The notes below the pieces were generated by a model. It saw only the letters and a list, made by a program, of their open reading frames with translations. It was not told where the DNA came from and ran no database searches. The translations under genes were made by a program, and so were the position numbers. Shown here piece by piece: positions 1 through 32,886 of a DNA stretch of 57,746 nucleotides. How positions within the stretch are numbered: position 1 is the first letter of the stretch; every line of letters begins with the position of its first letter. Where the stretch lies: the IMG/VR virus record IMGVR_UViG_3300014502_000007, positions 1 through 57,746 of that record, one strand, 5' to 3'. This DNA is from a virus (taxonomy: Duplodnaviria > Caudoviricetes).

Positions 1-310
1 ATGCATGTGTGTATGCATGTGTGTATGCATGTGTGTATGCATGTGTGTATGCATGTGTGTATGCATGTGTGTATGCATGTGTGTATGCATGTGTGTATGC
101 ATGTGTGTGCATGTGTGTGTATGCACGTGTGTATGCATGTGTGTATGCATGTGTATGTATGTGTGTGTGCATGTGTGTGTATACATGCCTATGTGCACAT
201 GCCTATGTGTACATGCCTATGTGTACATGCCTATGTGTACATGCCTATGTGTACATGCCTATGTGTACATGCCTATGTGTACACGCCTATGTACACGCCT
301 ATGTACACGC
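1..310. repeat. Simple tandem repeat tract: (ATGCATGTGTGT)x9 and variants, then about 7 copies of ACATGCCTATGTGT
   Basis: Directly visible. 1-108 is nine perfect 12-mers, 1-188 is strict purine/pyrimidine alternation, 183-280 is a 14-mer array. Confidence 0.97.
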
Positions 311-469
311 CTTACCCTTACCTGAAGGTGGCTTCTGTACTGGAGGCTTAGATGTACGACGTTGGTTCTCCTTAAGTCGCTTATCACTTGTCGTTCCCTT
401 ACTTGGCTTACCGCCCATGACTAACATCCTTTCATGTATGTGCGTGTGTGCATGTGTATGTGTGTATAT

Positions 470-585
470 GCCCTTAGACACGTCCTTAGACACGTCCTTA
501 GACACGCCCTTAGACACGCCCTTAGACACGCCCTTAGACACGCCCTTAGACACGCCCTTAGACACGTCCTTAGACACGTCCTTAG
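470..585. repeat. 12-bp tandem repeat GYCCTTAGACAC, 9 full copies plus a partial
   Basis: Directly visible; the last partial copy contains the TAA stop of the 582..836 gene. Confidence 0.97.
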
Positions 586-836
586 GGTGGTGTAACCTCG
601 GTTGTTGCCTCTATCTTTCGATAGAGACCAAGAACATTCTCTTCAACTATCTCATCGATTGCTTGTTCGATCGCAAGACTTTGATCAGCATCAGACAGTT
701 CATCTGAAGTCCTTACTATCCTTGCAAGAAACGACGGTGTGTGATACCCATGTATGTCATCCCATGCATACCACTCATCAAAGTGAGTGAAAGGATTCCA
801 TGGATTGTCTACTGTTGTTAACATATGTTCAACCAT
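582..836 (-). CDS. Conserved-looking phage hypothetical protein (84 aa)
   Basis: GGAGGA RBS; LTTVDNPWNPFTHFDEW motif; directly follows the 900-aa gene. Confidence 0.85.
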   Translation of the reverse strand: MVEHMLTTVDNPWNPFTHFDEWYAWDDIHGYHTPSFLARIVRTSDELSDADQSLAIEQAIDEIVEENVLGLYRKIEATTEVTPP

Positions 837-848: not shown

Positions 849-3551
849 TCACCCCATACTCTTCATCAATGTGGATACAGACACACCTAATGCATCAGCA
901 ACCTCAGCCTGCGTGTATCCAGAGTCAAGCATTGAACGTGCTCTACTCTTCTTTGATGTTGTCATGACCATAACCTTTTTTGGCGTGGCCAACTTCTTAA
1001 TCTGATCTATGTCACCGTTGTTAAGAACCTTCTCTAGTTGATCTTTACTAATGGCGCCTGCTTGTATGGCTTCCCACTCTTTACTTGTTAGTATGATCTT
1101 TGGTTTCCTGGCCCCGGTTCTTTCACGTGCTGCTTCTAGGGCTTGAAACCTAATCTTCTTTATCTCGGCGGGTTCCATGTCTGCATTAGCGGCCTTCTTA
1201 GCAGCAAAGTTAGTGTTTGCCAGAACCTGTGCTTGCCTTTCAAGCGGTGCGTTCCTTAAAGCAAGATCCAACTTAGCTTTAATAGACTTAACCTCACTTG
1301 AATACACCTTCTTTGCTGACGGTTCAACCTTATTATACTTTACATGAACCATCTCTAGTCGCGCAGTGTTGGCTAGACCCTTCAATTTGTTAGAGTGATC
1401 CGCATAGATCTTCTCTATTGGAGTACCTGATGAAAGGGTATGCGCATTTTCAGTCTCGACCAATTTAAGAGAATGTTGCTTGTTAACTATTAGTTTCTCA
1501 GTTACCTTGCCAGTCCTCTTGTTAGTTGTAGTCTTAATGTAAGACTCTCCAGTTGGCACAAAGACAAGTTTTCCAGTCTTCTTGTCAATTGGCCCACCCT
1601 CTTTTGCTGAACGAGCCTTATATTTAGGAACATCTATTCTTGCTGTAGCTCTAGAGATAAGCGTTGACGCCCCAGCACGAGAACCGCCTTGATAGTCCTT
1701 CTTAAGTTGTGCTATATTATTATCACTAGCGGATAATTTCCAATTTAGTTTATGTTTTTCCGCATCAATAACAACCATAGAATGCTTAACTGCTCGAGCA
1801 AGTTCAGCGTGGGATGCTCCTCGAATAGTCATGTCTGTAATTAGGTTAGAGATCTTTCCCATCTCAACACCTTTAGTTCGGGTGTCCATAACCGTCATAC
1901 CATCATATTTTTTATACAATTCTTTAGGTTTAAAATCTTTCAACTCTGCTAAAGCCGGTGATGTCTTGATCGTATGTCTATTGTTTGGAATAACAAGAAC
2001 AGAATCGCCATCAAAGTCAGCGCCAGAAAGTCTCTCAGCAACCTTTGAGTTTATACCTATAGCATCTTCGGGTCGACCAAGAAGTTTCTTAGACTGAGGA
2101 TGGTTGTTATTTACGGTAAGTTCTGGAATCTCAAATGTTCCACCATGCGGATAGCGAATTAAGGCAACACGTTCACCATTACGGAATTTGGGCGCATAAA
2201 CCTCAGTATCTTTCAAACTATCAACCGGAAGAATAACATGCCAACTCGAACGAGGAAGAGCTGCCGCCTTAAGGTGAACTGCTGATGAATCGGCAGAATC
2301 CGCGAAAGTTTTCAATAATTTTGCGCGAACAACAGGGTTTGTCAGTGCTGATATGCCATCGAGTTCAGCCTTCTTTTTTTCATAGGTCATGGCTAACTGC
2401 GATTTAGCAAAAACAGAACTTTGTTTAGACAACATCTGAGACGAGAGACTCTTCGAATACTTACCCCAACCACCCTCTTCACCAGAACCCGGCTTTGTTC
2501 CAACCAAATTCATTGCTGAGGTAACGTGTTCTTTACCATTAGAATCTTTAGCTTTTATCTGATGAACGACGGCTCCGAATGGGTTACCTTCATCATCTGA
2601 TACAGGCTTCATAGCATCAAGTTTATTACCCGTATCATCTTTACTTGTGTTGAATTCAAGATCTGTTCCTTTAGGTAGACCATCTTTATACATGGCCATA
2701 CCCTTCATATAATGGGTACCATCAACAGCAATACGAACTTGACCATAAGGAGTAGACCCCAAAGAAACATCCGGTACACCAGGTCGGACATAAATTACAC
2801 CATCAGCCTTTGATCCACCTTGGTTTGCATAACGAACCTTAATTCGATCTGAATTTACCTGGATCGGAGGAAGAAGACCAGACCAAGACTTTCCACCATC
2901 ATCAGAGTAATCTGTAATAGAATGAATCTTATCTTTGTTGGACACGATGTCACGGTATGTGGTTCCAGGAGGAGCTAAAACCCTAATGTTAGTTTTCTGA
3001 TTTCCTCCAGTACCAAGTTGATCAACCTGAACTGGGTGTACGGCATAACCATTTACCTTCATAACTTCAATGGCTTTACCAAGTTTGTCTTTGCTAACGT
3101 TTAGATGATATTCAACACCAACCCCAACATCGACAAACCCTTTCTTTGCTACTTGGTCTTTCAACATATTGACTGTTCCCATAAGAGACTCAGCTTTTAG
3201 TTTCTGACCAGGAAGAAGCAACGAACGAACCGAGGATTCGTTTATGTGCATTTCTCGACCAATAGCACTAGTACTCATACCGGTATCACGAAGACGCTGA
3301 GCCTGACTAATGTCTGCCTGCTTCTGAGAACTCTTATACATCAACTTCCTGGCTTGAAGTTCACCTCTGGTCATTCCAAGACCTTTAGCAATCTGAGTGT
3401 CATTCAAACCATGTCTATGAAGATCAGCAACATGGTCAAAGAAAGTCTTACTTCGCATATCTTCAGGATGTTCACCTGATCCCCAAGCATAGCGACCAGA
3501 TTTATGAAGAGTGCCGAAATGCATGAGGTAATCTTCTTCATTAATTATCAC
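849..3551 (-). CDS. Putative single-chain two-barrel (DPBB) DNA-directed RNA polymerase with terminal HTH motifs
   Basis: GADFDGD at aa 510-516 (nt 2004-2024), upstream RYPH, downstream GKISNL and VIDAEK; HTH-like segments at both ends (DTQIAKGLGMT, TSAIGREMHINESSVRS, TQAEVADALGVSVSTL). Confidence 0.75.
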   Translation of the reverse strand: MIINEEDYLMHFGTLHKSGRYAWGSGEHPEDMRSKTFFDHVADLHRHGLNDTQIAKGLGMTRGELQARKLMYKSSQKQADISQAQRLRDTGMSTSAIGREMHINESSVRSLLLPGQKLKAESLMGTVNMLKDQVAKKGFVDVGVGVEYHLNVSKDKLGKAIEVMKVNGYAVHPVQVDQLGTGGNQKTNIRVLAPPGTTYRDIVSNKDKIHSITDYSDDGGKSWSGLLPPIQVNSDRIKVRYANQGGSKADGVIYVRPGVPDVSLGSTPYGQVRIAVDGTHYMKGMAMYKDGLPKGTDLEFNTSKDDTGNKLDAMKPVSDDEGNPFGAVVHQIKAKDSNGKEHVTSAMNLVGTKPGSGEEGGWGKYSKSLSSQMLSKQSSVFAKSQLAMTYEKKKAELDGISALTNPVVRAKLLKTFADSADSSAVHLKAAALPRSSWHVILPVDSLKDTEVYAPKFRNGERVALIRYPHGGTFEIPELTVNNNHPQSKKLLGRPEDAIGINSKVAERLSGADFDGDSVLVIPNNRHTIKTSPALAELKDFKPKELYKKYDGMTVMDTRTKGVEMGKISNLITDMTIRGASHAELARAVKHSMVVIDAEKHKLNWKLSASDNNIAQLKKDYQGGSRAGASTLISRATARIDVPKYKARSAKEGGPIDKKTGKLVFVPTGESYIKTTTNKRTGKVTEKLIVNKQHSLKLVETENAHTLSSGTPIEKIYADHSNKLKGLANTARLEMVHVKYNKVEPSAKKVYSSEVKSIKAKLDLALRNAPLERQAQVLANTNFAAKKAANADMEPAEIKKIRFQALEAARERTGARKPKIILTSKEWEAIQAGAISKDQLEKVLNNGDIDQIKKLATPKKVMVMTTSKKSRARSMLDSGYTQAEVADALGVSVSTLMKSMG

Positions 3552-4492: not shown

Positions 4493-4517
4493 ATTATAAC
4501 CCGCGAATTATGTGCGG
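4493..4517 (-). promoter_or_regulatory. Phage promoter motif CCGC-N15-TATAAT upstream of the nuclease/RNAP operon
   Basis: Minus strand CCGCACATAATTCGCGGGTTATAAT; same spacing as 13 other copies. Confidence 0.65.
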
Positions 4518-4531
4518 GTTAATACCATATG

Positions 4532-8472: not shown

Positions 8473-8495
8473 GGTCTTTCCTTTCATAGGGTCTC

Positions 8496-8520
8496 GTTAT
8501 AACCTATGTTTTACACGCGA
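8496..8520 (-). promoter_or_regulatory. Phage promoter motif TCGC-N15-TATAAC
   Basis: TCGCGTGTAAAACATAGGTTATAAC. Confidence 0.8.
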
Positions 8521-8823: not shown

Positions 8824-8847
8824 GGTCTTTCCTTTCATAGGGGTCTC

Positions 8848-8872
8848 ATTATATGAAAGGTTTTTCCTGCGA
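8848..8872 (-). promoter_or_regulatory. Phage promoter motif TCGC-N15-TATAAT
   Basis: TCGCAGGAAAAACCTTTCATATAAT. Confidence 0.85.
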
Positions 8873-9159: not shown

Positions 9160-9183
9160 GGTCTTTCCTTTCATAGGGGTCTC

Positions 9184-9208
9184 ATTATATCCCATGATTT
9201 TCCTGCGA
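9184..9208 (-). promoter_or_regulatory. Phage promoter motif TCGC-N15-TATAAT
   Basis: TCGCAGGAAAATCATGGGATATAAT. Confidence 0.85.
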
Positions 9209-12690: not shown

Positions 12691-12744
12691 TTGAAGCTCC
12701 TATATAAAAGGACTAAAAATTTAAGACCATATAATGGTCTCTTC

Positions 12745-12769
12745 ATTATAAGCGGTGTTTTTCTTGCGA
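12745..12769 (-). promoter_or_regulatory. Phage promoter motif followed directly by a mini-hairpin and T-tract
   Basis: TCGCAAGAAAAACACCGCTTATAAT then GAAGAGACCAT-TAT-ATGGTCTTAAATTTTT. Confidence 0.8.
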
Positions 12770-23675: not shown

Positions 23676-24427
23676 TCATTTCCACCTCGAAACTTACGAA
23701 TTTTACGCTGATCGGAATGCTGAACAAAACCGAGAACCTCCTCAACATACTTATTCTGACTCTGCACCACTTCGAAGTCGAGTTCCAGTCGGTCATTTCG
23801 AATATAGACGATCTTGGGATCTTTTGACCCATGACCAAACTGTTTGAGATTCTCAACCCCAACCGTCTCCTCGATATCCTCAATGACTTGATCCCGCTCA
23901 TCAGACAGAACGTCATCACCCTCGAAGAATGTAATTGTGACCTGCTGATATCCGGGTTCAGACTCCATGAACTCATCGTGAGAGATCACATACGGGGCAT
24001 ACTCGGTTCGGTTCTTAATCTCCTCCGGATAGTCAAATTCTGCTAGTGGATCCCCATCACCATCATCTTTGAATATGTTTACCTCGCCCGTCACCTCGAT
24101 CGGGCCTTTGCTCGGATCCACTTCAGCATCGATTGACACAGCCTCAATGGTAAGATCTTCGACAACTCGAGGCTTCCCTTGATAGTCTAAAACAGCCTTA
24201 ACAGCATTCAGACCAAGACTCTCAACAGCAGACTCCGGAGTGTCGTACTCGTCCCTCTTATGGAGGGCGTTATAGAACTGCTTGGCCTCGGCGATCTCTT
24301 TGTTTGAGATCTCAAGATACTGGTTCTCCAACTTCTTCTTTGCAAAGAAATAACCCGAGACAGCGCCAAGACCGAGCGAGATAATTACAGTCCCGCCAAG
24401 GATCATATAAGATTGCTTTACATTCAT
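23672..24427 (-). CDS. Membrane-anchored acidic phage protein
   Basis: N-terminal TM segment; PYVISHDEF and VYIRNDRL motifs. Confidence 0.85.
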   Translation of the reverse strand: MNVKQSYMILGGTVIISLGLGAVSGYFFAKKKLENQYLEISNKEIAEAKQFYNALHKRDEYDTPESAVESLGLNAVKAVLDYQGKPRVVEDLTIEAVSIDAEVDPSKGPIEVTGEVNIFKDDGDGDPLAEFDYPEEIKNRTEYAPYVISHDEFMESEPGYQQVTITFFEGDDVLSDERDQVIEDIEETVGVENLKQFGHGSKDPKIVYIRNDRLELDFEVVQSQNKYVEEVLGFVQHSDQRKIRKFRGGNE

Positions 24428-25341
24428 TATACGTCCCTTCCAACCTTCTCGTAGACGACGCCGTCGACATTGAAGTCGAGCAGGATGGCACCCTCTTGGC
24501 CACTAACGAAATCGTAGAAACGGTCCATACGTTGACCATCAAATATGCCGAAGTCAACCGTGTCATCGCCCTCGCCCTTCACCCAGCCAACTACACAACC
24601 TTCCGGTGACCGATCAAGACCAAGCGCATCATATACATCATTCAGAAGAACGTGACCTCGGGCCTGAAGTCTTTCGTTCGCATAATTCTGCTGAGAACGG
24701 AGAAACAACAGGTTGTATTCAGGCTGAGGGGACCATGACGTTGAGCGATTGTCAAAGAACCGAGCATAAATTGACGCACCGTCAGATCCAACTCGCTTGG
24801 TTTCGACCGTCTTCGACTTACCATTCTCGTCGATCTTAGTCTCGACTACTGTCTCCGAGCCATAGCGAAACTCTCGATCCTTATCCACGCCAAGTTCATC
24901 GCGGACACGACCACGATACTCAGTAAAACCCTTCTCGATAACCGCATAAGCAGCGGTCAGACCAAGATTGCGCCTTGTTAGGATAACATGAGAACCGGTC
25001 AGGCAACCGATTGACACAATCCCAACCACGACTGCCGGAGCATAAAGTTTTGCTACGGTCGTGACAGCACGAACACGGAGGATTACCTTATCCTGCGCAT
25101 AGTCCTTGTCGTTATAACTCGCAACATTCCTATCGTGGAGAGACTCTGCTTTTTCCATATTGTCCTGGATTTCCTGGATTGTCATGTCCAGGTTTAGAGT
25201 TGCCCGAGATGCAAGAACCACGGTGGCGACAACGCCGACCACACCAGCGGCGAATAGGATCGTCGGTGAGTGTTTCTGACCGATGAGTACCTGACGAGCA
25301 ACCTTCGATGTGATTACGTTCTTAAGCGAACTGATGTTCAT
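24427..25341 (-). CDS. DUF6353-like protein
   Basis: KHSPTIL, LTAAY, LLNDVYDALG, VVGW and ILLDFNVDG motifs. Confidence 0.8.
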   Translation of the reverse strand: MNISSLKNVITSKVARQVLIGQKHSPTILFAAGVVGVVATVVLASRATLNLDMTIQEIQDNMEKAESLHDRNVASYNDKDYAQDKVILRVRAVTTVAKLYAPAVVVGIVSIGCLTGSHVILTRRNLGLTAAYAVIEKGFTEYRGRVRDELGVDKDREFRYGSETVVETKIDENGKSKTVETKRVGSDGASIYARFFDNRSTSWSPQPEYNLLFLRSQQNYANERLQARGHVLLNDVYDALGLDRSPEGCVVGWVKGEGDDTVDFGIFDGQRMDRFYDFVSGQEGAILLDFNVDGVVYEKVGRDV

Positions 25342-25399
25342 TTCTTCTCCTTGTCGAGCAAGTATTGAGATGCAAGATATAGCGGACTTGGCGTGTATT

Positions 25400-25669
25400 C
25401 TATACCTTTTTCTTCTTATCTTTCTTGATCTTCAGTTCCGATGCAAATGCACCATAAGGACTATACCTATTACGAGCAGGACTAGGTTTCCATGGCTCAT
25501 CACCATACATCTTTTTGAAAAGCCATTTCGAACCATTATCCATTAACACTTCGTGGATCTCTGGATTACGATCAATCGCCTGGACTAACAACAATCCAAC
25601 AACGAAGGAACCAACAGACCCAACGAAAACGCCACCTGCAAAAGGAATAACAATCTTGAAAACCTTCAT
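25400..25669 (-). CDS. Membrane protein
   Basis: AAGGAG RBS; Gly-rich TM segment. Confidence 0.75.
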   Translation of the reverse strand: MKVFKIVIPFAGGVFVGSVGSFVVGLLLVQAIDRNPEIHEVLMDNGSKWLFKKMYGDEPWKPSPARNRYSPYGAFASELKIKKDKKKKV

Positions 25670-25695
25670 TTTATCTCCTTTATAATTTGTTTTTC

Positions 25696-26352
25696 TTAAT
25701 CTAGTAGTTCGGGCTTTGGCAGATCTAGCAGATATCCGTCACGAACTCGAGCGACGTTTGCGCCACGAAGACCGCCATCACTAGTCCAACCATATTTGTT
25801 ATCGGTGTAACTGGCATCTATTCCAACCAACTCATAGAGTTCGGAGACCGTCGCCGACTCAAACTCAGATACTAGATTGAAAAGTCGATCTAGAACCTCA
25901 TCAGCTTCGACCCGAGTTGGCAAAATGATCTCGTCAAAGTCATGCGCGGCTCTTGCCCTTCGACTCATACCGCTTCGCCGCTCATCTGGATAGTCTCGAT
26001 CCCTTGGCGTATTCTGAGAATATCGATTGCCATAGTTGGTGTAGACATTCGACATACTCGGACGACGCCCAGTTCTCCTACTGCTGGACCGAGCTTCTCC
26101 AAATATCATTCGCTCAATACCCTGACTGACGGCATCTGCGATTGCATCTTTGGCTGCTGGGATAAGAACGTCCATTGTCACATAATTAAGGACACCCTTT
26201 ACAGGTTGACCACCGGTGAACATCTCAACAAATCGCTTTCCCATTGGCTTCTTGCGCCGAACAACTTCTCCGGAAATAACCTTCTCGATCTTCTTTGGCT
26301 CTGGCTTCTCAACTTTGTGCTTGTTACTGTTACTGGGGAATTCGCTTTCCAT
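25696..26352 (-). CDS. Conserved phage hypothetical protein
   Basis: DVLIPAAKD, TVSELYELVG, DNKYGW and GYLLDLP motifs. Confidence 0.85.
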   Translation of the reverse strand: MESEFPSNSNKHKVEKPEPKKIEKVISGEVVRRKKPMGKRFVEMFTGGQPVKGVLNYVTMDVLIPAAKDAIADAVSQGIERMIFGEARSSSRRTGRRPSMSNVYTNYGNRYSQNTPRDRDYPDERRSGMSRRARAAHDFDEIILPTRVEADEVLDRLFNLVSEFESATVSELYELVGIDASYTDNKYGWTSDGGLRGANVARVRDGYLLDLPKPELLD

Positions 26353-26367
26353 TACGTCCTCAATCCT

Positions 26368-26646
26368 TTAGAATCTATCTACAGTAAAGACTTCGGCCAA
26401 TTCACCATCTGGAGAATAGACTCTTATGACTGGCATGGTGTGTGATATGTTGTTTTCTGCAAAACGCAAAGCAGCATTTATCTTCGGGAAATGAATCGGC
26501 AATTGCTCACCGTATATAGTTGGCCATACCATGGATTTGATCCGGACAAAGTAATGACCTTGGTCGTTCTCGAATATTTTAGGACTTGGCACAGGAAAAT
26601 TCTTCATGATTCCTCGCTGCTTATAACTATTACCTGGATAGTCCAT
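26368..26646 (-). CDS. Hypothetical protein (start MDYPGNS)
   Basis: GAGGA RBS; N-terminus resembles that of the next gene (EFPSNS). Confidence 0.7.
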   Translation of the reverse strand: MDYPGNSYKQRGIMKNFPVPSPKIFENDQGHYFVRIKSMVWPTIYGEQLPIHFPKINAALRFAENNISHTMPVIRVYSPDGELAEVFTVDRF

Positions 26647-26666
26647 AATTTCCTCTAGACAAAGAG

Positions 26667-26700
26667 AAAACAAGATACCGTGGTTCTGGTATCCTGCTTT
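26667..26700 (-). terminator. Intrinsic terminator closing a cassette
   Basis: AAAGCAGGATACC-loop-GGTATCTTGTTTT. Confidence 0.7.
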
Positions 26701-26724
26701 GAGTTGTTATGCAAGTAGTTTCTT

Positions 26725-26955
26725 CTAGACTGTGGTTTGGTACCAAACCATCACACTGTCGATCGATCGGTCTACGTACTGCTCTGCAAGATCGGATACT
26801 AACATTCCAAGGACAACGCTGCCAACCCAAACTTCAGTTTTTTGGAACTTGTCTTGGGGGCTGACGTTGTTGGAAATGACGTTGCTGATCACGAATACAG
26901 TACTAAGTCCAACGACGACTTTTGCGACGAATTTGGTTACTTTAATTTTGGTCAT
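26725..26955 (-). CDS. 76-aa membrane protein (cassette gene)
   Basis: Leader GAGACCCCTATGAAAGGAATTATC-ATG; two hydrophobic segments. Confidence 0.8.
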   Translation of the reverse strand: MTKIKVTKFVAKVVVGLSTVFVISNVISNNVSPQDKFQKTEVWVGSVVLGMLVSDLAEQYVDRSIDSVMVWYQTTV

Positions 26956-26979
26956 GATAATTCCTTTCATAGGGGTCTC

Positions 26980-27004
26980 ATTATAGGGCATGTTCTTCTT
27001 GCGA
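26980..27004 (-). promoter_or_regulatory. Phage promoter motif TCGC-N15-TATAAT
   Basis: TCGCAAGAAGAACATGCCCTATAAT. Confidence 0.85.
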
Positions 27005-27025
27005 GGTGGGCACATGTTTCTCCTT

Positions 27026-27112
27026 GGGGAGGGGAATGCTCGGCTGTCGTTTATAAGTCAGCATCCGGAATAGGGCGAGACCCTAAGAAAGGACCCTTGC
27101 CGACTCCCACCT
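27026..27112 (-). ncRNA. Candidate structured RNA
   Basis: Intergenic; stems GGGAG/CTCCC, GTCGGC/GCTGAC, TAGGG/CCCTA. Confidence 0.4.
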
Positions 27113-27127
27113 TTGCAAATATGGAGG

Positions 27128-27661
27128 TTACTCTTTTGAGTTCTCAGCAATTCTTGTCTTCATGGCCTCAACCAATTCCTCACGAGTCATATCTTGAGGA
27201 CGCTTTGGACCCTTGATTTCTTTCTTTGGTTCCTCGGGAAGCGAGACATCCTGAAGGATTGTCCCTTTGAGAACGGAGGTGTCGGTGTCAGAAGTAATGT
27301 TGAATCCATCAGGGACCACCCCGTTGAAGAATTGCAACATGGCCTTTTCATCACTAACAAGTTCCATGAAAAGTTTAGAATATGCCTCGGTGCCCATGAA
27401 GTGTTGAATTAGTTCAGGTGACTTTTCGAAACTCTTGTTATCGGCATTGCGAACGCCATATGCCTTAGTCAGAATCTCTTCGAATGCATCAACAATTTCC
27501 TGATTATTATCGGCCGCAACGATTTGCTTGAGATACGAGGACAAACCACCTTTCGTACGAAGTTCCCATTTGGCAAGTTCCGCTGTGAAAAGGTGGAAAT
27601 AGAAGTCCTCGGTGAGCATGTTACCGTCGAGGTCTGGGTATGTAATAGTCTTCTTGAACAT
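27128..27661 (-). CDS. Conserved phage hypothetical protein
   Basis: KKTITY.D.DG, EDFYFHL, AYG, F..TEAYSKLFMEL; TAATG overlap. Confidence 0.85.
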   Translation of the reverse strand: MFKKTITYPDLDGNMLTEDFYFHLFTAELAKWELRTKGGLSSYLKQIVAADNNQEIVDAFEEILTKAYGVRNADNKSFEKSPELIQHFMGTEAYSKLFMELVSDEKAMLQFFNGVVPDGFNITSDTDTSVLKGTILQDVSLPEEPKKEIKGPKRPQDMTREELVEAMKTRIAENSKE

Positions 27662-28026
27662 TAGAGCCTTTCAGAGATAGGAAGGTATGAAGCTTGAGAG
27701 ACATCCTTCTTAGACACGCACTCATTCAATTCCTCATTGACCACTGCCTTAAGCAGAATGAGATAATTGATGTGGTCAGTAATTTTCTCTTCCCATACCG
27801 CCATAGGAAAGACATTACCACTTTGACACATGTCAAATATGGAAATGGTATGCTTGGCCAACATGCCGGCAACGGCCTGACGAACAGTACAACCCTCGAG
27901 TTCTGCTGCAACTTTGAAGTTGTGGAGACGGTCCTCGGTGGCATATTCCTTAGCCTTAACCACCAGGGTGTCCCGACACATGTCGATTTGTTCATCGAAA
28001 ATATGTTCAAAATTATCTGCATCCAT
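27661..28026 (-). CDS. All-alpha nucleotide-modification-associated (DUF1599/Nmad1-like) protein
   Basis: KAKEYA.EDRLHNF, KH and EKITDHINYL motifs. Confidence 0.6.
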   Translation of the reverse strand: MDADNFEHIFDEQIDMCRDTLVVKAKEYATEDRLHNFKVAAELEGCTVRQAVAGMLAKHTISIFDMCQSGNVFPMAVWEEKITDHINYLILLKAVVNEELNECVSKKDVSQASYLPISERL

Positions 28027-28467
28027 TTAGACCCAGTTCTTGTCAATGTTGTGGTTGATTTTCCAGATACCAAACTTAGTTTTGGCCTTGCGGTAGTACT
28101 TCTTTCCCTCAGCAAGTGCTACCTTGTCGAGACCTGTCTGGTGTGCTACAACTCCAATGGTGACGATGATGAGAAGTCCAGTAGAGAGCCCTCGACGGTC
28201 TCCTCGAAGAAGGGCTTTTGCATTCTTACCAATCATATTCGATCGGTCAATGTGTTTGCGCTCCTTGGCAGCCTTTATGGCAAGGTTCGCAAAGGGCTGT
28301 TTGCTATAAGCCTTATTAAAAGCCTCGTTGTAGTTAGATATGTTCTCAACCTTGTGGGCGATCTCAGCCGAAAGCAACTTACGTCGCGTCCCAGCACCCT
28401 CACCGAAGAACAACTCCGCATATGCCCATTTTGCCGCGTCTTTAGCGGCGATTTTATTGATGTTCAT
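28027..28467 (-). CDS. Hypothetical membrane-associated protein
   Basis: AAGGAG RBS; FFGEGAGTRRKL motif. Confidence 0.8.
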   Translation of the reverse strand: MNINKIAAKDAAKWAYAELFFGEGAGTRRKLLSAEIAHKVENISNYNEAFNKAYSKQPFANLAIKAAKERKHIDRSNMIGKNAKALLRGDRRGLSTGLLIIVTIGVVAHQTGLDKVALAEGKKYYRKAKTKFGIWKINHNIDKNWV

Positions 28468-28479
28468 GGATTACTCCTT

Positions 28480-28665
28480 CTAGTGACCATTCACATGAAG
28501 CAAATGCTCTGCATCTTCTTCTTTGATCTCAACCCAGAAATTCTTATCCATGTCAATGTCGTAGAACTCTTTGTAGAGCTTTCCATTGAATCGGAAGATT
28601 GCTGGAGGATCTAATCGATAGATCTTGAACTGTCTAGACTGTTTCACACCAAGAAGTCCAGCCAT
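28480..28665 (-). CDS. Hypothetical protein
   Basis: GGAG RBS. Confidence 0.65.
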   Translation of the reverse strand: MAGLLGVKQSRQFKIYRLDPPAIFRFNGKLYKEFYDIDMDKNFWVEIKEEDAEHLLHVNGH

Positions 28666-28667
28666 AA

Positions 28668-28814
28668 TTAGTACTCCACTCCTGGGTGATCATGCTCAAA
28701 AGTAGCTTTCTTGAGTTCAAGTTTGGCTGTGAGATCCTTTATATACTTGATAATCTCGGGTCGATACTTAATGTAACACCAGCAGGTAACGAATCCGAAG
28801 GCAAACTTTTTCAT
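28668..28814 (-). CDS. 48-aa hypothetical protein (not in ORF track)
   Basis: GAAAGGA RBS; MKKFAFGFVTCWCYIKYRP... Confidence 0.65.
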   Translation of the reverse strand: MKKFAFGFVTCWCYIKYRPEIIKYIKDLTAKLELKKATFEHDHPGVEY

Positions 28815-28849
28815 GACAGTTCCTTTCAGAACATAATTGGGGTAAAGGC

Positions 28850-28882
28850 AAAACAGAAGACCTTGTTAGGGTCTCCTGCTTT
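28850..28882 (-). terminator. Intrinsic terminator, CTAACAA loop
   Basis: AAAGCAGGAGACC-CTAACAA-GGTCTTCTGTTTTGCC. Confidence 0.75.
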
Positions 28883-28904
28883 GTGAGCCGGTCTTGATGG
28901 GCAA

Positions 28905-29078
28905 TCAGACTTCGGTGGACAGAGCGTCAGCGATCTCGACGGGGCTGGTCTTCAACTTGACGACGACAACTACGGCGACGACGACAGCAAGTGCTGCGAC
29001 GCCAACGCGGATGGCATTGGTCTTGGTGAAAACCGACTTCGAGGGGAGGGCGGCGACGTTGTTGGTTTCTTCGGTCAT
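28905..29078 (-). CDS. 57-aa membrane protein (cassette gene)
   Basis: Leader GAGACCCCCTATGAAAGGAATTATC-ATG; Val/Ala TM segment. Confidence 0.8.
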   Translation of the reverse strand: MTEETNNVAALPSKSVFTKTNAIRVGVAALAVVVAVVVVVKLKTSPVEIADALSTEV

Positions 29079-29105
29079 GATAATTCCTTTCATAGGGGGT
29101 CTCTC

Positions 29106-29130
29106 ATTAGAGGCCATGTTTTTCTTGCGA
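29106..29130 (-). promoter_or_regulatory. Phage promoter motif TCGC-N15-TCTAAT
   Basis: TCGCAAGAAAAACATGGCCTCTAAT. Confidence 0.8.
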
Positions 29131-29150
29131 GGTTAACTTGGGTGTAACCT

Positions 29151-29930
29151 CTAATACGTGGTGTGACTCCGGTAATAGTCTCTTATTGGGGCCACATGGA
29201 ATGCGATGGAGATACACGGACGACTATCCTCAGACATACACGTCGAGAAATCCAACTCCATTAACTTATCTGTATTCCACCCAACCTCTTCAGAATTTGC
29301 GGTCGTTGGAATGCCGATCTTGTTGTAGAAGTCACTAAGAGAGGCGTAACCGTCATTGAGCACCAGGTAGTTGGTGTCGTTTTGACCTCTCTTCAACTCC
29401 TCCATACTACTCATGAAGTAGCGACCAGTGAACGCCTCATAACAGAGAACTTCCCCGCTACCTGTTATGATGATCTCACGTGCACCTACAGGGTCTCGAT
29501 TGATACGTTCTTGGGCGATCTCGTCCCGAACGATCTGTTCTTTTGGTGCTCCGATCTTCTCAATGACCTTCGTCTTGTACTCGGAGAAGGCTTTCTCAGA
29601 GATCGAATATGCAGCAGCAACTGCGGCGGCTCGTCGTGAACCAATCTTATTGGCTCCGATGATGCAAACTATCGTCAGGATTCCAGTGCCAATCGCTGGA
29701 ATATAAAACTTCCAGACGAAACGAGTACGCTCTTTGACTGTGGGCCAGCCATCTTCAGCTTTTCCACCAACCTCTTCCTCGGCATGAATGATCTCTGCAG
29801 CCTTGAACGTGGCCCTTCCTGTGAGATATGCGGTGGTGATGGTTCCGGTGACCCCAATTGCAGTCAAAATAGATGGCGAGTTGTCGATAGTCAGTTTTTC
29901 GACCTTTTTGAGAATACTAACCAAATTCAT
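29151..29930 (-). CDS. DUF6353-like protein (paralog)
   Basis: NSPSILTAIG, AAAYSISE, GRYF, SLSDFY and VGWN motifs; AAAGGA RBS. Confidence 0.8.
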   Translation of the reverse strand: MNLVSILKKVEKLTIDNSPSILTAIGVTGTITTAYLTGRATFKAAEIIHAEEEVGGKAEDGWPTVKERTRFVWKFYIPAIGTGILTIVCIIGANKIGSRRAAAVAAAYSISEKAFSEYKTKVIEKIGAPKEQIVRDEIAQERINRDPVGAREIIITGSGEVLCYEAFTGRYFMSSMEELKRGQNDTNYLVLNDGYASLSDFYNKIGIPTTANSEEVGWNTDKLMELDFSTCMSEDSRPCISIAFHVAPIRDYYRSHTTY

Positions 29931-29941
29931 TTTGTTTCCTT

Positions 29942-30055
29942 TCAACGCCGACGCATTTCACGAACAAAGATCCAAATCAACCACAAGCCTCCAGTAAGGA
30001 AGCACATGAAGACGTCGAGTAGAAAACTGAAAAGACCGTAACGTTTTGACAACAT
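29942..30055 (-). CDS. 37-aa membrane peptide
   Basis: AAAGGA RBS; LTGGLWLIWIFVREMR. Confidence 0.75.
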   Translation of the reverse strand: MLSKRYGLFSFLLDVFMCFLTGGLWLIWIFVREMRRR

Positions 30056-30081
30056 GACTTTTCCTTTGCTGTGAGTTGGCG

Positions 30082-30155
30082 AAAAATTAAGAGCACGATT
30101 CATCAGTATAGTGGTTGATGTTTCGTCTTTGCTTGGGGGCAAAGTTGGCTCTCTC
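30082..30155 (-). ncRNA. Candidate small RNA (74 nt)
   Basis: Starts right after the promoter motif; closing stem GAGAGC/GCTCTT; two inner hairpins; T-tract. Confidence 0.6.
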
Positions 30156-30180
30156 ATTATAGGGCATGTTTTTTCTGCGA
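30156..30180 (-). promoter_or_regulatory. Phage promoter motif TCGC-N15-TATAAT
   Basis: TCGCAGAAAAAACATGCCCTATAAT. Confidence 0.85.
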
Positions 30181-30183
30181 GGC

Positions 30184-30215
30184 AAAACAAGAGGCCTGGT
30201 TAGGGCCCCCTGTTT
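30184..30215 (-). terminator. Intrinsic terminator, CTAACCA loop
   Basis: AAACAGGGGGCC-CTAACCA-GGCCTCTTGTTTTGCC. Confidence 0.75.
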
Positions 30216-30223
30216 CCTGAGAG

Positions 30224-30388
30224 TTACTTCTGGTCGGAAGGATCCCCGATCTTGTCCTCTCCACTATTCAGTGAGTCCAAGAACTCCTGTGCTTCTATAC
30301 GCTGTTCAGGTGCCTTGAAGAAATCGTGAACCATCCTTTCTGCAAGGGCGGGGTCGTGGCCATAGTCACGCTCGAACTGTGTCACCAT
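30224..30388 (-). CDS. 54-aa acidic protein (not in ORF track)
   Basis: AGGAG RBS; MVTQFERDYGHDPALAERMVHDFF... Confidence 0.65.
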   Translation of the reverse strand: MVTQFERDYGHDPALAERMVHDFFKAPEQRIEAQEFLDSLNSGEDKIGDPSDQK

Positions 30389-30626
30389 CTTGGGTCTCCT
30401 TGGTGATGAGCATCCTGAATTGGGTGGGGTGTGCGCTCACGAAGAACTCGTAGGTCTTGTCGAAGTACTCTTTCGACACACACCTCCAGTTATCGGGGTC
30501 TTGAGGGTCCCTGATCAGGTAGTAGCCTTTGGCCTGATCGTAGTTCAGTCGCCCCTCTTCCTCCCGAAGCGGCATATCGAGGTATTTGTTGAAGGACTTC
30601 TTTGTGATCTTCAAGGCTTCCAGCAT
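30366..30626 (-). CDS. Hypothetical protein
   Basis: GAGGAG RBS. Confidence 0.8.
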   Translation of the reverse strand: MLEALKITKKSFNKYLDMPLREEEGRLNYDQAKGYYLIRDPQDPDNWRCVSKEYFDKTYEFFVSAHPTQFRMLITKETQDGDTVRA

Positions 30627-30635
30627 GGTTTCTCC

Positions 30636-30797
30636 TCAGATCATGTCGACTTCGACGAAGAAATCCTCGTCTTGGGTGTTAGCAAAGCGGTATTTCGCGA
30701 AGAAGTCCTCCTCAGTCAGTATCTCGTTGCTAGCGTTGTGGTCGTACGGGAAGAAGAAGTAGTCATACTTCTTATGCGCATCGTCAATTTCGGGCAT
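30636..30797 (-). pseudogene. Probable frameshifted small gene
   Basis: GGAGG-ATG MPEIDD...NEITD*; removing one A gives ...NEILTEEDFFAKYRF...VDMI, which ends at the next RBS. Confidence 0.4.
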
Positions 30798-30852
30798 AAT
30801 CCCTCCATTCAGACCGCGATCTTGTCTCGATTCGTCGTCGTGATCATGATCG

Positions 30853-31446
30853 CTAGGCCAACGGACCTGGGTTTGCGCGGCGACTTCGTCGATGAACTAG
30901 ACGGGTTTGCGCGGCGACTTCGTCGATGGTGTCGTTCAACTCGCGAAGATCTGAATCAAGACGAAGCATTTGCCTCTCAAGAACTTCAACTCGTGCTTGT
31001 GCCACGTCGAGCAGGTTTTCGAGATTCTGTATGGTCGCGTTACTCTCCGAAAGTTTGCCTTCTGAATCAGCGAGTCCACCTGCGAGTCTATCGCCCTTCA
31101 ACAATGCCTCTTTGAGTTCGGTTGACAGTTCTTGGATGGTCTTGTCACGCTCGGCAAGTTCCCGAGTAAGTTTTCCAACCAAGATCGCCGTGGACCTCTC
31201 AGAGACCGTCGCGGTCCTCCCAGTCCCCTTCTGGGTAACTTTCATGGTCGCAGGTTTCCTAGGCTTCCGTTCGACGGTGGTAACGGTTTGGGTTGGTGGC
31301 GTCGTCTTGTGATGAACCACCTTCTTGTAGTAGGTGCGTTTGACAGGCTGACCACCATTTGCGACTTTGGCTGCGGAACGTTCTCTTGAAAGGGCAGCCA
31401 TCTTCTCAGCATGAGCAGCAGGATCTTTGGGATATCCAGCAGGCAT
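30853..31446 (-). CDS. Basic N-terminus / coiled-coil protein
   Basis: AAGGAG RBS; heptad-rich C-terminal half. Confidence 0.8.
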   Translation of the reverse strand: MPAGYPKDPAAHAEKMAALSRERSAAKVANGGQPVKRTYYKKVVHHKTTPPTQTVTTVERKPRKPATMKVTQKGTGRTATVSERSTAILVGKLTRELAERDKTIQELSTELKEALLKGDRLAGGLADSEGKLSESNATIQNLENLLDVAQARVEVLERQMLRLDSDLRELNDTIDEVAAQTRLVHRRSRRANPGPLA

Positions 31447-31505
31447 GACAATCTCCTTATAATTAGTGTTGCTGTTTTGATAATGATGGTTCTTTAATAT
31501 TGGCG

Positions 31506-31598
31506 AAAAAGGAAAGACCTATTTCCAATCGTTCAATTTCATGTCACTGCATCTGCGGGTAGCGTGGCATTAAACGTTGTGGTTTAATAGATCTCTCT
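31506..31598 (-). ncRNA. Candidate small RNA (93 nt)
   Basis: After the promoter motif; 12-bp closing stem GAGAGATCTATT/AATAGGTCTTTC; T5 tract; no RBS-ORF. Confidence 0.65.
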
Positions 31599-31623
31599 AT
31601 TATAGGGCATGTTTTTTCTGCGA
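31599..31623 (-). promoter_or_regulatory. Phage promoter motif TCGC-N15-TATAAT
   Basis: TCGCAGAAAAAACATGCCCTATAAT, identical to the copy at 30156. Confidence 0.85.
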
Positions 31624-31626
31624 GGC

Positions 31627-31720
31627 AAAAAGAAAGGAGGTCACTGGTGTTGCTCGGGCCTTATAACTATGACGCGATTAGTCTTCGACATTACTATCTA
31701 AGATACCATAGTTTCCTTTC
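31627..31720 (-). ncRNA. Candidate small RNA (94 nt)
   Basis: Closing stem GAAAGGA/TCCTTTC; inner AACTATG/CATAGTT; T5 tract; only a 3-codon ORF. Confidence 0.6.
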
Positions 31721-31745
31721 ATTATAGGGCATGATTTTCTTGCGA
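31721..31745 (-). promoter_or_regulatory. Phage promoter motif TCGC-N15-TATAAT
   Basis: TCGCAAGAAAATCATGCCCTATAAT. Confidence 0.85.
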
Positions 31746-31748
31746 GGT

Positions 31749-31780
31749 AAAACAAGAAGCCTTGTTAGGGCTTCCTGCTT
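31749..31780 (-). terminator. Intrinsic terminator, CTAACAA loop
   Basis: AAGCAGGAAGCC-CTAACAA-GGCTTCTTGTTTTACC. Confidence 0.75.
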
Positions 31781-31964
31781 AGAGCTCCAGGTTATCCAGA
31801 GCGAACTTGATGTTGTTGACCGTGTTGTTCGTCTTCGTCTTCACTTCTTCCATCTCAGACTTCATCTTCCTAGAACCAACTAGCACAATGGCTAGAGTGG
31901 TTGTAGAAGCGATTAGGCTTAAAGAGGAAAGCGTGATGAGGACGACGGATGTCGTGGTGTTCAT
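31779..31964 (-). CDS. 61-aa membrane-anchored protein (cassette gene)
   Basis: Leader GGAGACCCCAACGAAAGAAAGGAACGAG-ATG. Confidence 0.8.
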   Translation of the reverse strand: MNTTTSVVLITLSSLSLIASTTTLAIVLVGSRKMKSEMEEVKTKTNNTVNNIKFALDNLEL

Positions 31965-31992
31965 CTCGTTCCTTTCTTTCGTTGGGGTCTCC

Positions 31993-32017
31993 ATTATAAG
32001 CCGTGATATTTATGCGA
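31993..32017 (-). promoter_or_regulatory. Phage promoter motif TCGC-N15-TATAAT
   Basis: TCGCATAAATATCACGGCTTATAAT. Confidence 0.8.
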
Positions 32018-32056
32018 GACCTTAGTCGAATTCTTCCTCCGCGGGAAAATTGAGGC

Positions 32057-32142
32057 AAACAAAATAGAAAGCCGTGGAACCTCAGTAGTCGAGGTTCGTT
32101 TTGGCCTGTCGATTGCTTACCTGTTCTAAGGGTATTCTATTC
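32057..32142 (-). ncRNA. Candidate small RNA (86 nt)
   Basis: Closing stem GAATAGAA/TTCTATTT; inner hairpins TACC/GGTA and GAACCTC/GAGGTTC; T-tract. Confidence 0.65.
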
Positions 32143-32167
32143 ATTATAAGGCATGTAAATCCTGCGA
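32143..32167 (-). promoter_or_regulatory. Phage promoter motif TCGC-N15-TATAAT
   Basis: TCGCAGGATTTACATGCCTTATAAT. Confidence 0.85.
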
Positions 32168-32170
32168 GAC

Positions 32171-32202
32171 AAACCTAAAGTCCTGGCTAGGGGCTGTCGG
32201 TT
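32171..32202 (-). terminator. Intrinsic terminator, CTAGCCA loop
   Basis: AACCGACAGCCC-CTAGCCA-GGACTTTAGGTTTG; resembles the 8525 terminator. Confidence 0.6.
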
Positions 32203-32210
32203 CTTGAGAT

Positions 32211-32354
32211 TCAGCGTTCTTCGTGGTCGAGAAGCCAAAGGTAGTATCGATTCGTTTCCTCTTCGAGGGCCGGGTCCTGACGTCGTGTCATACGTGTGTT
32301 GTTGACAATGACGTCGGAGTGGTCGACGAAGGAGGAGATTGGTGTATAAAACAT
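32211..32354 (-). CDS. 47-aa protein (cassette gene; start MFYTP)
   Basis: TAAGGA RBS after the promoter motif. Confidence 0.7.
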   Translation of the reverse strand: MFYTPISSFVDHSDVIVNNTRMTRRQDPALEEETNRYYLWLLDHEER

Positions 32355-32390
32355 TTTGGGGTCCTTAGTGTAGAATATGGTTGTGGTCTC

Positions 32391-32415
32391 ATTATATACC
32401 ATGTAAATCCTGCGA
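32391..32415 (-). promoter_or_regulatory. Phage promoter motif TCGC-N15-TATAAT
   Basis: TCGCAGGATTTACATGGTATATAAT. Confidence 0.85.
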
Positions 32416-32460
32416 TATGTTAGGCAAAAATTAGAACCCTTGTAAAGTGAGGAGCAAACA

Positions 32461-32501
32461 TAGAGGGCGTGCAAGAGTGTTTAGTTCTCACACGCCCTCT
32501 A
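32461..32501 (-). terminator. Long hairpin after the 95-aa gene
   Basis: TAGAGGGCGTG / CACGCCCTCTA, 11-bp perfect stem. Confidence 0.65.
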
Positions 32502-32532
32502 CATTTGATCTTCCTTTCAAGTGATCAGCACT

Positions 32533-32820
32533 TCATCGAAGTTTGAGCACAAAACTCAGGGCTTTCGAAGTCACGACATTTGCTCGCTCGAATCCGACGA
32601 TGATCAGAATTCCGAGGAGGTTTCCAGCGATGATGGCCATCGTGTCAGGACTTATTCCTTTAGGGCGATCTCCATCCCTTAGGGCATAAAGCTTGACTAG
32701 TTGGTCCGCCATCTTTGAATACTCTTCGGTATCACTCATTACCGAGTTCATCTCGCTGAGCAAGTCGTCGATAACTTTCTCAAGTCTTGACGGTTCATGC
32801 AGGGTCTTCTTAGTGAACAT
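32533..32820 (-). CDS. Membrane protein
   Basis: Leader GAGACCACCTATGAAAAGGAG; ISPDTMAIIAGNLLGILIIVGFE. Confidence 0.85.
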   Translation of the reverse strand: MFTKKTLHEPSRLEKVIDDLLSEMNSVMSDTEEYSKMADQLVKLYALRDGDRPKGISPDTMAIIAGNLLGILIIVGFERANVVTSKALSFVLKLR

Positions 32821-32846
32821 GCTTTCTCCTTTTCATAGGTGGTCTC

Positions 32847-32871
32847 ATTATAGGCGATGTTTAAACCGCGA
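32847..32871 (-). promoter_or_regulatory. Phage promoter motif TCGC-N15-TATAAT (first copy after the structural block)
   Basis: TCGCGGTTTAAACATCGCCTATAAT. Confidence 0.8.
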
Positions 32872-32886
32872 GCCCACCAACATGAA

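Follow-up and report, generated by a model that had tools for sequence, protein, structure and literature searches.

A probable single-chain two-barrel RNA polymerase with terminal helix-turn-helix units in an uncultured phage

The predicted polymerase core

What does a 900-residue reading frame in the genome of an uncultured peat/permafrost phage encode, and which sequences would its product read? A sequence-only reading of the window, that is, of the whole stretch of 57,746 nt analysed here, had proposed a compact and divergent phage RNA polymerase (RNAP). Single-chain two-barrel RNAPs are rare windows on the cellular enzyme as it may have been before subunits and sigma factors and, to our knowledge, only a few have been studied, namely YonO, crAss gp66 and the P23-45 enzymes. 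The reading frame is indeed present at 849..3551, with a GTG start, and lies on the minus strand, which the sequence-only reading had left unspecified; the plus-strand translation of the same interval contains many stops. From the sequence and from the structural model, we consider it probable (about 80%) that the product, P0001, is a single-chain two-barrel nucleotidyl transferase of the QDE-1/phage single-subunit RNAP clade, which would transcribe phage DNA.

The motifs on which this proposal was founded are found where they had been placed. In the minus-strand translation, RYPH occupies aa 466-469, at a distance of 43 residues from D512, LSGADFDGD occupies aa 508-516, and GKISNL and VIDAEK follow at aa 565-570 and 594-599, respectively. 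Homologues were compared in an alignment of 60 sequences, made up of P0001 and 59 of 150 listed representatives (2011 matches at E<=1e-3), the homologues being 43-53% identical to P0001. R466, P468, H469, G510, D512, D514, G515 and D516 are invariant in all 60, and the same is true downstream for G565, N569, L570, D573, D596 and K599. Conservation of DFDGD, which had been named as a check, therefore holds throughout the alignment, and the motif is also present in orf75 of Lactococcus phage 1706, 37% identical to P0001. Judged from this conservation, the motifs of P0001 are beyond chance. The codons of D512-F-D514-G-D516 (2004..2018, minus strand) are predicted to specify the Mg2+-binding catalytic loop, a DxDGD loop of the kind that characterizes the two-barrel RNAP superfamily, in the beta-prime-like barrel. 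The invariant R466-Y-P468 upstream agrees, in pattern and position only, with the conserved R-x-P of the superfamily, for which the available text of PMC2919709 names Rpb1 R446/P448 as equivalents.

The double-psi beta-barrel fold, another of the checks proposed, is likewise supported, as a double-barrel polymerase core (aa 228-738; 1338..2870, minus strand) is confidently predicted in the model of P0001, with two barrels in one core and a fold like that of solved members. The first, beta-like barrel region (2502..2867, minus strand) was delimited from model strands 237-350, from coverage of the QDE-1 alignment and from the invariant Q271, R273, K283 and G284; D250/D261 are at least 90% conserved among the 60 sequences. 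Equivalents of Rpb2 K979, K987 and D837 are expected in this barrel across the superfamily; R273, K283 and D250/D261 are the candidates in P0001, and may match these basic residues and Asp one by one. The second, beta-prime-like barrel (1986..2246, minus strand) carries R466-Y-P468-H and the metal loop. It is followed by two long helices (aa 557-600; 1752..1883, minus strand), modelled at 557-576 and 581-600 and containing GKISNLITDMT and VIDAEK, which their position and the Rpb1 alignment range suggest to be bridge-helix-like. In the mechanism that we propose, D512, D514 and D516 would bind the catalytic Mg2+ where the beta-like barrel (aa ~229-350) meets the beta-prime-like barrel (aa ~436-522), and P0001 would be catalytically active. 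Its most likely job would be to transcribe the phage's own genes from DNA, independently of the host RNA polymerase.

The best structural matches of the model are exclusively two-barrel RNA polymerases, the top ones being the RNAi polymerases QDE-1 and plant RDR2, at 11-16% identity; gp66 (6VR4) is absent among the matches listed. PDB sequence searches with P0001 and with the 60-sequence profile returned HTH matches only; at the Asp loop, the P23-45 gp96 chain and AR9 beta-prime were matched without significance (E 0.4-1.3). Similarity to YonO was undetected by hhalign (probability 1.2%) in what was a weak test, a 60-sequence profile against a single YonO sequence. Together, the predicted core, the two-barrel structural matches and the invariant DFDGD argue for the compact, divergent phage RNAP originally put forward.

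Terminal helix-turn-helix units and the known family

The helix-turn-helix (HTH) domains that had been seen to flank the core are recovered at both ends. At the C terminus, a pair of units (aa 823-899; 855..1085, minus strand) matches HTH_23 (E 1.9e-7) and HTH_7 (E 5.5e-6), both past the Pfam cut-offs, and is modelled as three-helix units. The N-terminal pair (aa 34-137; 3141..3452, minus strand) forms three-helix units in the model (helices 34-46/51-57/62-89 and 94-101/105-111/114-137), with weaker matches, to CENP-B_N and GerE in Pfam and to the HTHs of NarL, resolvase and ECF sigma factors in profile searches. Sigma70_r4_2 also matches P0001 (E 6.6e-5), at 22.9 bits and thus below its cut-off of 25.7, and at E<=0.01 it matches 48 of the 50 family members; no match to sigma-70 region 2 was found in P0001 with Pfam. 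Since generic HTH families outscore Sigma70_r4_2, these units are best taken as HTHs of the same clan and not as a sigma factor. HTH matches of the Terminase_5 type occur in 21 of the 50 members. Between the N-terminal HTHs and the core, the secondary structure of the model indicates a small alpha/beta domain (aa 139-205; 2937..3137, minus strand).

P0001 is a new member of an already known and experimentally uncharacterised family. It matches PHROG 4291 ("RNA-dependent RNA polymerase") over its full length (residues 4-899 aligned with profile positions 7-905 of 909; E=0, 1235 bits); the family comprises 865 clusters at E<=1e-30, and homologues occur in 250 phage records, from phages of Arthrobacter, Gordonia and Streptomyces, the Lactococcus 1706-like phages and others. 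Its carriers grow on laboratory hosts that are harmless. To call the enzyme hidden was therefore an overstatement, as PHROG 4291 and several RefSeq records name an RNA-dependent RNA polymerase (RdRP) and two in silico descriptions have been published. The expectation that annotation would stop at the HTHs was closer to the mark: among 40 rows listed of the 250 records, 23 read HTH or DNA-binding, seven RNA-dependent RNA polymerase, nine hypothetical or unnamed and one 'excise'. Going by these rows, the gene is labelled just as an HTH protein in most of the records. As far as their available text goes, a 2010 paper (PMC2919709) counts the family as one of five YonO-like families, the link that it draws between the 1706 protein and YonO being only a distant one, and a 2021 preprint (bioRxiv 10.1101/842583) considers it a probable RNAP; both portray its members as two-barrel polymerases that carry DxDGD and have HTHs at their termini. 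No published biochemical test or activity of any member was found in a literature search, and neither a promoter nor an RNA polymerase came up for these clusters in term searches of surveys of Arthrobacter, Gordonia and Rhodococcus phages.

In comparison with the PHROG 4291 family (1706 orf75; clusters AM, AU, AW, BI, CC, DJ and EL; Lactococcus/Faecalibacterium relatives), P0001 is 37-57% identical over the full length, the closest relative in phage records being 57.4% identical; a megablast search of the gene against those records gave no match. It shares with 1706 orf75 and the actinophage family the length class, the HTHs at both ends and LSGADFDGD, as well as a place at the right genome end, after an endonuclease and a Cas4-like exonuclease and before a small conserved ORF. 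Other phage polymerases differ in build. For instance, the non-virion RNAPs of Thermus phages P23-45 (gp64) and P74-26 (gp62) are without HTH modules, the gp64 type having ~600 aa, and the virion RNAP gp96 of P23-45 is fused to the tape measure. YonO of SPbeta, a single-chain two-barrel DNA-dependent RNAP from a Gram-positive siphovirus-like phage, is a functional analogue; the available accounts of it report no HTH flanks and have it serve a single late operon. We know of no two-barrel RNAP outside this family with DNA-binding HTH modules fused to its catalytic core.

Promoter-like cassettes and their possible reader

If P0001 is an RNAP, its promoters might be sought among 13 near-identical cassettes of this genome, all on the gene strand. 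In each, a CGCA box stands 13 nt and an ACAY box 4 nt upstream of TATAAT, and a conserved leader follows. Nine form a cluster ahead of small genes (26977..32870, minus strand; repeat families D4/D5, fuzzy search and position weight matrix (PWM) scan), with 27-nt cores at 26977, 29103, 30153, 31596, 31718, 31990, 32140, 32388 and 32844 and the form CTCGCA-r-GAAAAACATGCCC-TATAAT-GAGACCCC leader. Four others like them, found by repeats, fuzzy search and PWM, lie at 8493-8519, 8845-8871, 9181-9207 and 12742-12768 (minus strand). The PWM scan gave 13 gene-strand sites, 12 of which had themselves served to build the matrix, and no antisense site; a scan with a simple pattern gave 10 and none, with 1.5 expected. 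A degenerate promoter-like site (CCGCA ... TATAAT-AGAAG; 4493..4522, minus strand) lies upstream of the endonuclease-exonuclease-RNAP group; seen by inspection of the sequence and consensus scan, it falls below the PWM threshold, and in Circum, ReqiPoco6 and L009 this position is taken by better conserved counterparts.

Circum, Kenosha, ReqiPoco6, Bilo, P162 and 1706 also have cassettes of this architecture, the diverged ones of Circum, P162 and 1706 having been found by eye only. Cassettes are common to RNAP-bearing phages of different host phyla. With a 63-nt cassette as blastn query, 132 of 50,697 phage records were matched, and 129 of these belong to RNAP-carrying groups (Gordonia 55, Streptomyces 53, 'Siphovirus contig89' 12, Arthrobacter 5, Rhodococcus 4). 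Left unmatched were 90 of the 95 Arthrobacter records and all 13 of Lactococcus, along with seven of Curtobacterium, four of Microbacterium and two of Faecalibacterium. Common descent of the phages confounds the joint occurrence of cassette and RNAP. A literature text search with the core sequence of the cassette found no relevant paper.

Given an active enzyme, we put at about even odds that the four terminal HTH units find promoters without a sigma factor and that the 13 cassettes are their targets. The pair would then be a compact, self-contained promoter-polymerase system, in which start-site selection by a minimal two-barrel enzyme could be tested directly. The promoter motifs described for the P23-45 polymerases in the available text are AT-rich and GC-rich, and not a TATAAT cassette.

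A credible, though not the favored, alternative keeps the active phage RNAP and takes the cassettes as early promoters for host sigma-A, the enzyme serving middle or late, structural genes from a promoter other than these, as YonO does for the late operon of SPbeta. TATAAT is the textbook -10 element of sigma-A, and a -35 is often missing from actinobacterial promoters; hence, the cassettes may be promoters of the host type, combined with an operator to which another phage regulator binds. Their position, ahead of small early-type genes directly after the tail genes, would suit such a role, as would the lack of a preceding cassette at the structural genes in the PWM scan and the fact that late-gene transcription by YonO begins, in the accounts available, at a single start site. 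Furthermore, TTGCCT, which agrees with -35 in four of six positions, occurs with an 18-nt spacing at three of the 13 sites. However, the -35 position is not conserved among the cassettes, whereas CGCA and ACAY are, and the CGCA box is too near TATAAT to be a -35 element. The same boxes are also present in Lactococcus phages and in those of four genera of actinobacteria, the Lactococcus versions having neither a -35 nor a TG-extended -10. Nor was an alternative conserved late motif found, but the contig has a break at the very junction at which it would be expected.

Delivery, genome context and template

Two routes by which the enzyme reaches the DNA can be envisaged: it may be made first from its genome end and then fire the cassettes, in a T7-like manner, or it may travel inside the virion and enter with the DNA. 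Packaging and injection are possible, but we lean against them. Phage 1706 orf75 was labelled 'structural protein' by its depositors (GenBank EU081845), with a matching note in the ReqiPoco6 record; this is an annotation label only, and the sole pointer to a virion location. Reasoning of a similar style was accepted for the P23-45 polymerases, as far as the available text conveys. Five long fused forms of RNAP homologues were also found. Two of them (DNA polymerase-RNAP and RNAP-tape measure) are likely assembly chimeras, as both partners are truncated; the other three share an N-terminal extension of ~1050 aa, which includes a portal domain in one. A scan of viral contigs with the portal-bearing form gave ordinary unfused genes only, and the fusion is therefore given no weight here.

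Two further elements accompany the enzyme. The first is a conserved N-terminal peptide (aa 8-26; 3474..3530, minus strand; consensus L-x-HYG-x-x-R-x-SGRYPWGSG), predicted to be disordered (pLDDT <50 for aa 1-33 of the model), in which G13, S18, G19, R20 and G24 do not vary in any of the 60 aligned sequences; in a six-frame scan, the motif occurred once per genome and only in the RNAP homologue, in 7/7 genomes. The second is the gene directly downstream (582..836, minus strand), for a highly conserved 84-aa acidic protein of phrog_4303 (PHROG E 2.6e-37), with relatives in 1134 clusters at E<=1e-5, the best 70-85% identical. At every one of 17 loci it comes after the RNAP gene, and its product is a possible partner of the RNAP; a complex prediction scored 0.00, which says nothing for or against the pairing. 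The RNAP gene stands beside the genome end in this genome and in relatives. An ORF at 3-707 (plus strand) was rejected as a gene, as it lies within tandem repeats and has no PHROG match.

The most ambitious version of the proposal, in which a virion-injected, sigma-free RNAP reads CGCA/ACAY/TATAAT through its HTHs, with the N-terminal peptide perhaps as a packaging or docking signal and perhaps together with the 84-aa protein, we regard as rather unlikely. Only if packaged in the virion would P0001 resemble the virion RNAPs N4 vRNAP and crAss-like phi14:2 gp66, injected enzymes that fire conserved early promoters. If the ambitious version held, early genes would be transcribed without the host RNAP in the dairy phage 1706 group and in hundreds of actinophages isolated in classrooms, and such a system, with a 100-kDa RNAP, would be widespread in Gram-positive siphoviruses. 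N4 vRNAP is itself T7-like, and not a two-barrel enzyme.

It is improbable that P0001 is an RNA-templated polymerase like QDE-1 and RDR2, copying phage or host RNA, for instance into double-stranded or antisense RNA. RNAi polymerases are its best structural matches, and the sole Pfam polymerase match is RdRP (PF05183; E 0.0056, aa 503-605 only), the name that databases repeat. Nevertheless, these labels derive from the Pfam name and not from assays. The match scores 15.9 bits against a gathering cut-off of 23.8, so that P0001 is related to PF05183 by fold and falls outside it by Pfam's rule; RdRP matches 23 of 50 homologues at E<=0.01, the best at 8.9e-5. Moreover, QDE-1 and RDR2 are eukaryotic, use RNA templates and have no terminal HTH units, whereas P0001 has four HTH units of a DNA-binding type and belongs to a dsDNA phage with promoter-like cassettes. 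The QDE-1 entries among the structural matches listed include DNA templates, and the characterised phage members of the clade covered by the available sources are all DNA-dependent.

A chiefly DNA-binding protein with a relic polymerase core (a regulator, a genome-end or packaging factor, or an injected protein) would accord with the HTH-only labels, the Terminase_5-type matches, the position beside the genome end and the structural label of the 1706 homologue, but is very improbable, because a dead enzyme would not retain three Asp, the R-x-P and first-barrel basic residues invariant across the 60 aligned sequences. Finally, the genome encodes its own primase-polymerase, and a primase role for P0001 is therefore not needed.

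A predicted two-barrel polymerase of a recognised family

The 900-aa reading frame proposed by the sequence-only reading at 849-3551 is real; its coding strand is the minus strand and it begins with a GTG codon. The four motifs quoted for its product, P0001 (LSGADFDGD, RYPH, GKISNL and VIDAEK), all occur where they had been placed. Among 1.84 billion cluster representatives searched, 2011 match at E<=1e-3, of which 865 reach E<=1e-30; in the 150 listed, identity is 43-58% and nearly all are full length. In an alignment of P0001 with 59 of these 150, the expected conservation of DFDGD is borne out, with G510, D512, D514, G515 and D516 unchanged in all 60 sequences. The same is true of R466, P468 and H469, of G565, N569, L570 and D573, of D596 and K599, and of an upstream block (Q271, R273, K283, G284). 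Even orf75 of Lactococcus phage 1706, which is 37% identical to P0001, retains LSGADFDGD and RYPHGG.

An AlphaFold2 model built from the 60-sequence alignment (pLDDT 84.6, pTM 0.71) agrees with the two-barrel fold that had been suggested. In a Foldseek search of the PDB, its best matches are the eukaryotic RNAi polymerases QDE-1 (E 2.4e-9) and maize and Arabidopsis RDR2, together with the gp64-type polymerases of Thermus phages P23-45 and P74-26 (target TM 0.40-0.43), followed by P23-45 gp96 and then Rpb1 chains. Matches in BFVD are viral 'RdRP' proteins and P23-45 gp64. Because of these matches, the modelled core is assigned to the two-barrel polymerases of the QDE-1 and phage single-subunit clade. 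The predicted HTH flanks are also found: the model has two three-helix units at aa 34-137, a small alpha/beta domain at aa 139-205, a helical region at aa 744-812 and two further three-helix units at aa 823-899, the C-terminal HTHs being confirmed by Pfam matches to HTH_23 and HTH_7. Pfam RdRP scores 15.9 bits on P0001, under the cut-off of 23.8, but at E<=0.01 it matches 23 of 50 relatives. In two homologues of about 1065 aa (P0009 and P0028), the full HTH-polymerase-HTH protein is preceded by an additional N-terminal 2H-phosphoesterase domain (2'-5' RNA ligase superfamily; E 3e-6 in P0009, a weaker 0.006 in P0028).

The polymerase interpretation is thus supported, for a predicted enzyme, and the underlying observation is confirmed. 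The protein is not hidden, since PHROG 4291 ('RNA-dependent RNA polymerase'), which covers it end to end, and two papers name the family. The phage 1706 protein figures among five YonO-like two-barrel families (Ruprich-Robert and Thuriaux 2010), and a preprint on cluster BI (bioRxiv 10.1101/842583) reports PF05183 by HHpred, HTH domains at both ends and a DxDGD loop, in a protein that 'could potentially have RNA polymerase activity'. By tblastn, 250 phage records carry a homologue, all below 60% identity (Arthrobacter 95, Gordonia 55, Streptomyces 54, Lactococcus 13, 'Siphovirus contig89' 12, Curtobacterium 7, Rhodococcus 4, Microbacterium 4, and others). In the best 40 of these 250, the gene lies without exception at the right end of the genome, and the guess that annotation would say HTH protein is right for 23, labelled HTH or DNA-binding; 7 are labelled RdRP, 9 are hypothetical or unnamed and 1 is called 'excise'. 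In the openly readable literature, no experimental test of the family was found, nor any paper connecting it with virions or with a promoter. As the family has already been recognised computationally, P0001 is therefore a member of a known, uncharacterised kind, and the leads open to test are the promoter-like cassettes, a pointer to the virion and a conserved candidate partner gene.

Promoter-like cassettes in polymerase-bearing phages

A cassette of about 50 nt occurs in 13 copies in the window, every one on the gene strand. Its upstream part, often with a hairpin and T-run, reads CTCGCA-r-GAAAAACATGCCC and then TATAAT; downstream, GAGACCCCTATGAAAGGA forms a leader with a ribosome-binding site, followed by ATG. 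Nine copies lie directly past the tail and lysis genes, before small genes, and four further on; none was found ahead of the window's structural genes. A PWM scan gives 13 sites, all of them on the gene strand, a result that is partly circular, the matrix being derived from 12 of the sites. A simple pattern gives 10 against 0, with 1.5 expected. A weaker variant, TATAAT or TATAGT and then AGAAGG, stands ahead of the endonuclease-exonuclease-polymerase group in Circum, ReqiPoco6 and an IMG/VR relative; the window has a degenerate form of it.

The same architecture is common to six polymerase-bearing phages without DNA alignable to the window: Circum (Arthrobacter, 5-6 sites), Kenosha (Gordonia, 7), ReqiPoco6 (Rhodococcus, 13), Bilo (Streptomyces, 61% GC; 5, with a variant -10), P162 (Lactococcus, 12) and 1706 (Lactococcus, 10, with TATAGT). 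A 63-nt cassette query matched 132 of 50,697 phage records, 129 of them in polymerase-carrying groups (Gordonia 55/55, Streptomyces 53/54, contig89 12/12, Rhodococcus 4/4 of the polymerase records); the remaining three are at chance level. The query did not pick up most of the Arthrobacter records, or any from Lactococcus, Curtobacterium, Microbacterium or Faecalibacterium, in which the cassettes have diverged from it.

Such co-occurrence alone proves little, because the phages share ancestry. The case for promoters of the phage polymerase lies instead in boxes unlike those of sigma factors and kept across host phyla. The CGCA box is 13 nt from the -10 hexamer and therefore too close for a -35 element, and conservation is absent at the true -35 position. 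The same logic was applied to the P23-45 polymerases. TATAAT could equally serve host sigma-A, and for this reason the probability that the cassettes are promoters of P0001 is put at about 50%.

Possible virion packaging or early expression

In the phage 1706 record (GenBank EU081845), orf75 carries its depositors' label 'structural protein', which is repeated in the ReqiPoco6 record; RefSeq relabelled orf75 RdRP. Near the N-terminus (aa 8-26; 3474-3530, minus strand) lies a nearly invariant peptide, HYG..R.SGRYPWGSG, which is predicted to be disordered and occurs once in each of the seven genomes scanned, in the polymerase only, in Lactococcus phages as well as actinophages. It may act as a signal for docking, packaging or cleavage. 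The polymerase gene adjoins the genome end and therefore lies beside the structural genes in a circularised genome. Moreover, three homologues of about 1800 aa, known from one contig each (P0026, P0039 and P0152), join an N-terminal extension of about 1050 aa to a polymerase core without the HTH ends, and the extension of P0026 starts with a portal domain (E 2.9e-29). When viral contigs were scanned for this portal-linked form, only unfused genes were found. The peptide, the genome-end position and the rare portal-linked form fit packaging of the polymerase in the virion, without showing it; alternatively, its gene may be expressed first from the entering end, in the style of T7.

Genome context and environmental occurrence

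The 57.7-kb record, with an estimated completeness of 96% (CheckV), is written in reverse complement relative to the usual phage map, with nearly all genes on the minus strand. It encodes terminase, portal, capsid-protease fusion, major tail protein and tape measure, as well as a primase-polymerase, a helicase, HNH and VRR-Nuc-type endonucleases and a Cas4-like exonuclease. The head maturation protease and major capsid protein are fused in 785 aa (47595-49952, minus strand), and similar fusions are described for clusters AM and AU (Klyczek 2017).

Directly after the polymerase gene is an acidic 84-aa reading frame, phrog_4303 (582-836, minus strand), which holds this place in 17 of 17 loci checked. 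Homologous to it are 1134 clusters, with 70-85% identity in the best, and it is under far tighter constraint than the polymerase; neither a Pfam family nor a fold match was found for it. Just past this module, three tandem arrays of 12-14-nt units occupy the contig end (1-585), at 1-178 (15 copies), 178-304 (9) and 470-585 (10). A plus-strand reading frame at 3-707 was rejected as an artefact of these repeats. The right ends of Circum, Bilo and Kenosha have no such arrays; the assembly of the window probably broke at its own. In junction-spanning contigs, a conserved element (G-run, GGTCTCGC, C-run, CTGCATCGC) lies between the small reading frame and the first left-end gene (L014, 10660-10720; L015, 9165-9215), and it is also present at the right terminus of Bilo; it is probably the cos region.

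Near-identical DNA is present in at least 20 runs from 16 studies of peat, permafrost or wetland, three of them possibly the source. Of the words sampled from 24000-33000, 27-57% occur in each of six metatranscriptome runs, which indicates presence in RNA libraries only. The GC content of the window, 45.5%, is like that of the low-GC actinophages among the polymerase-bearing phages.
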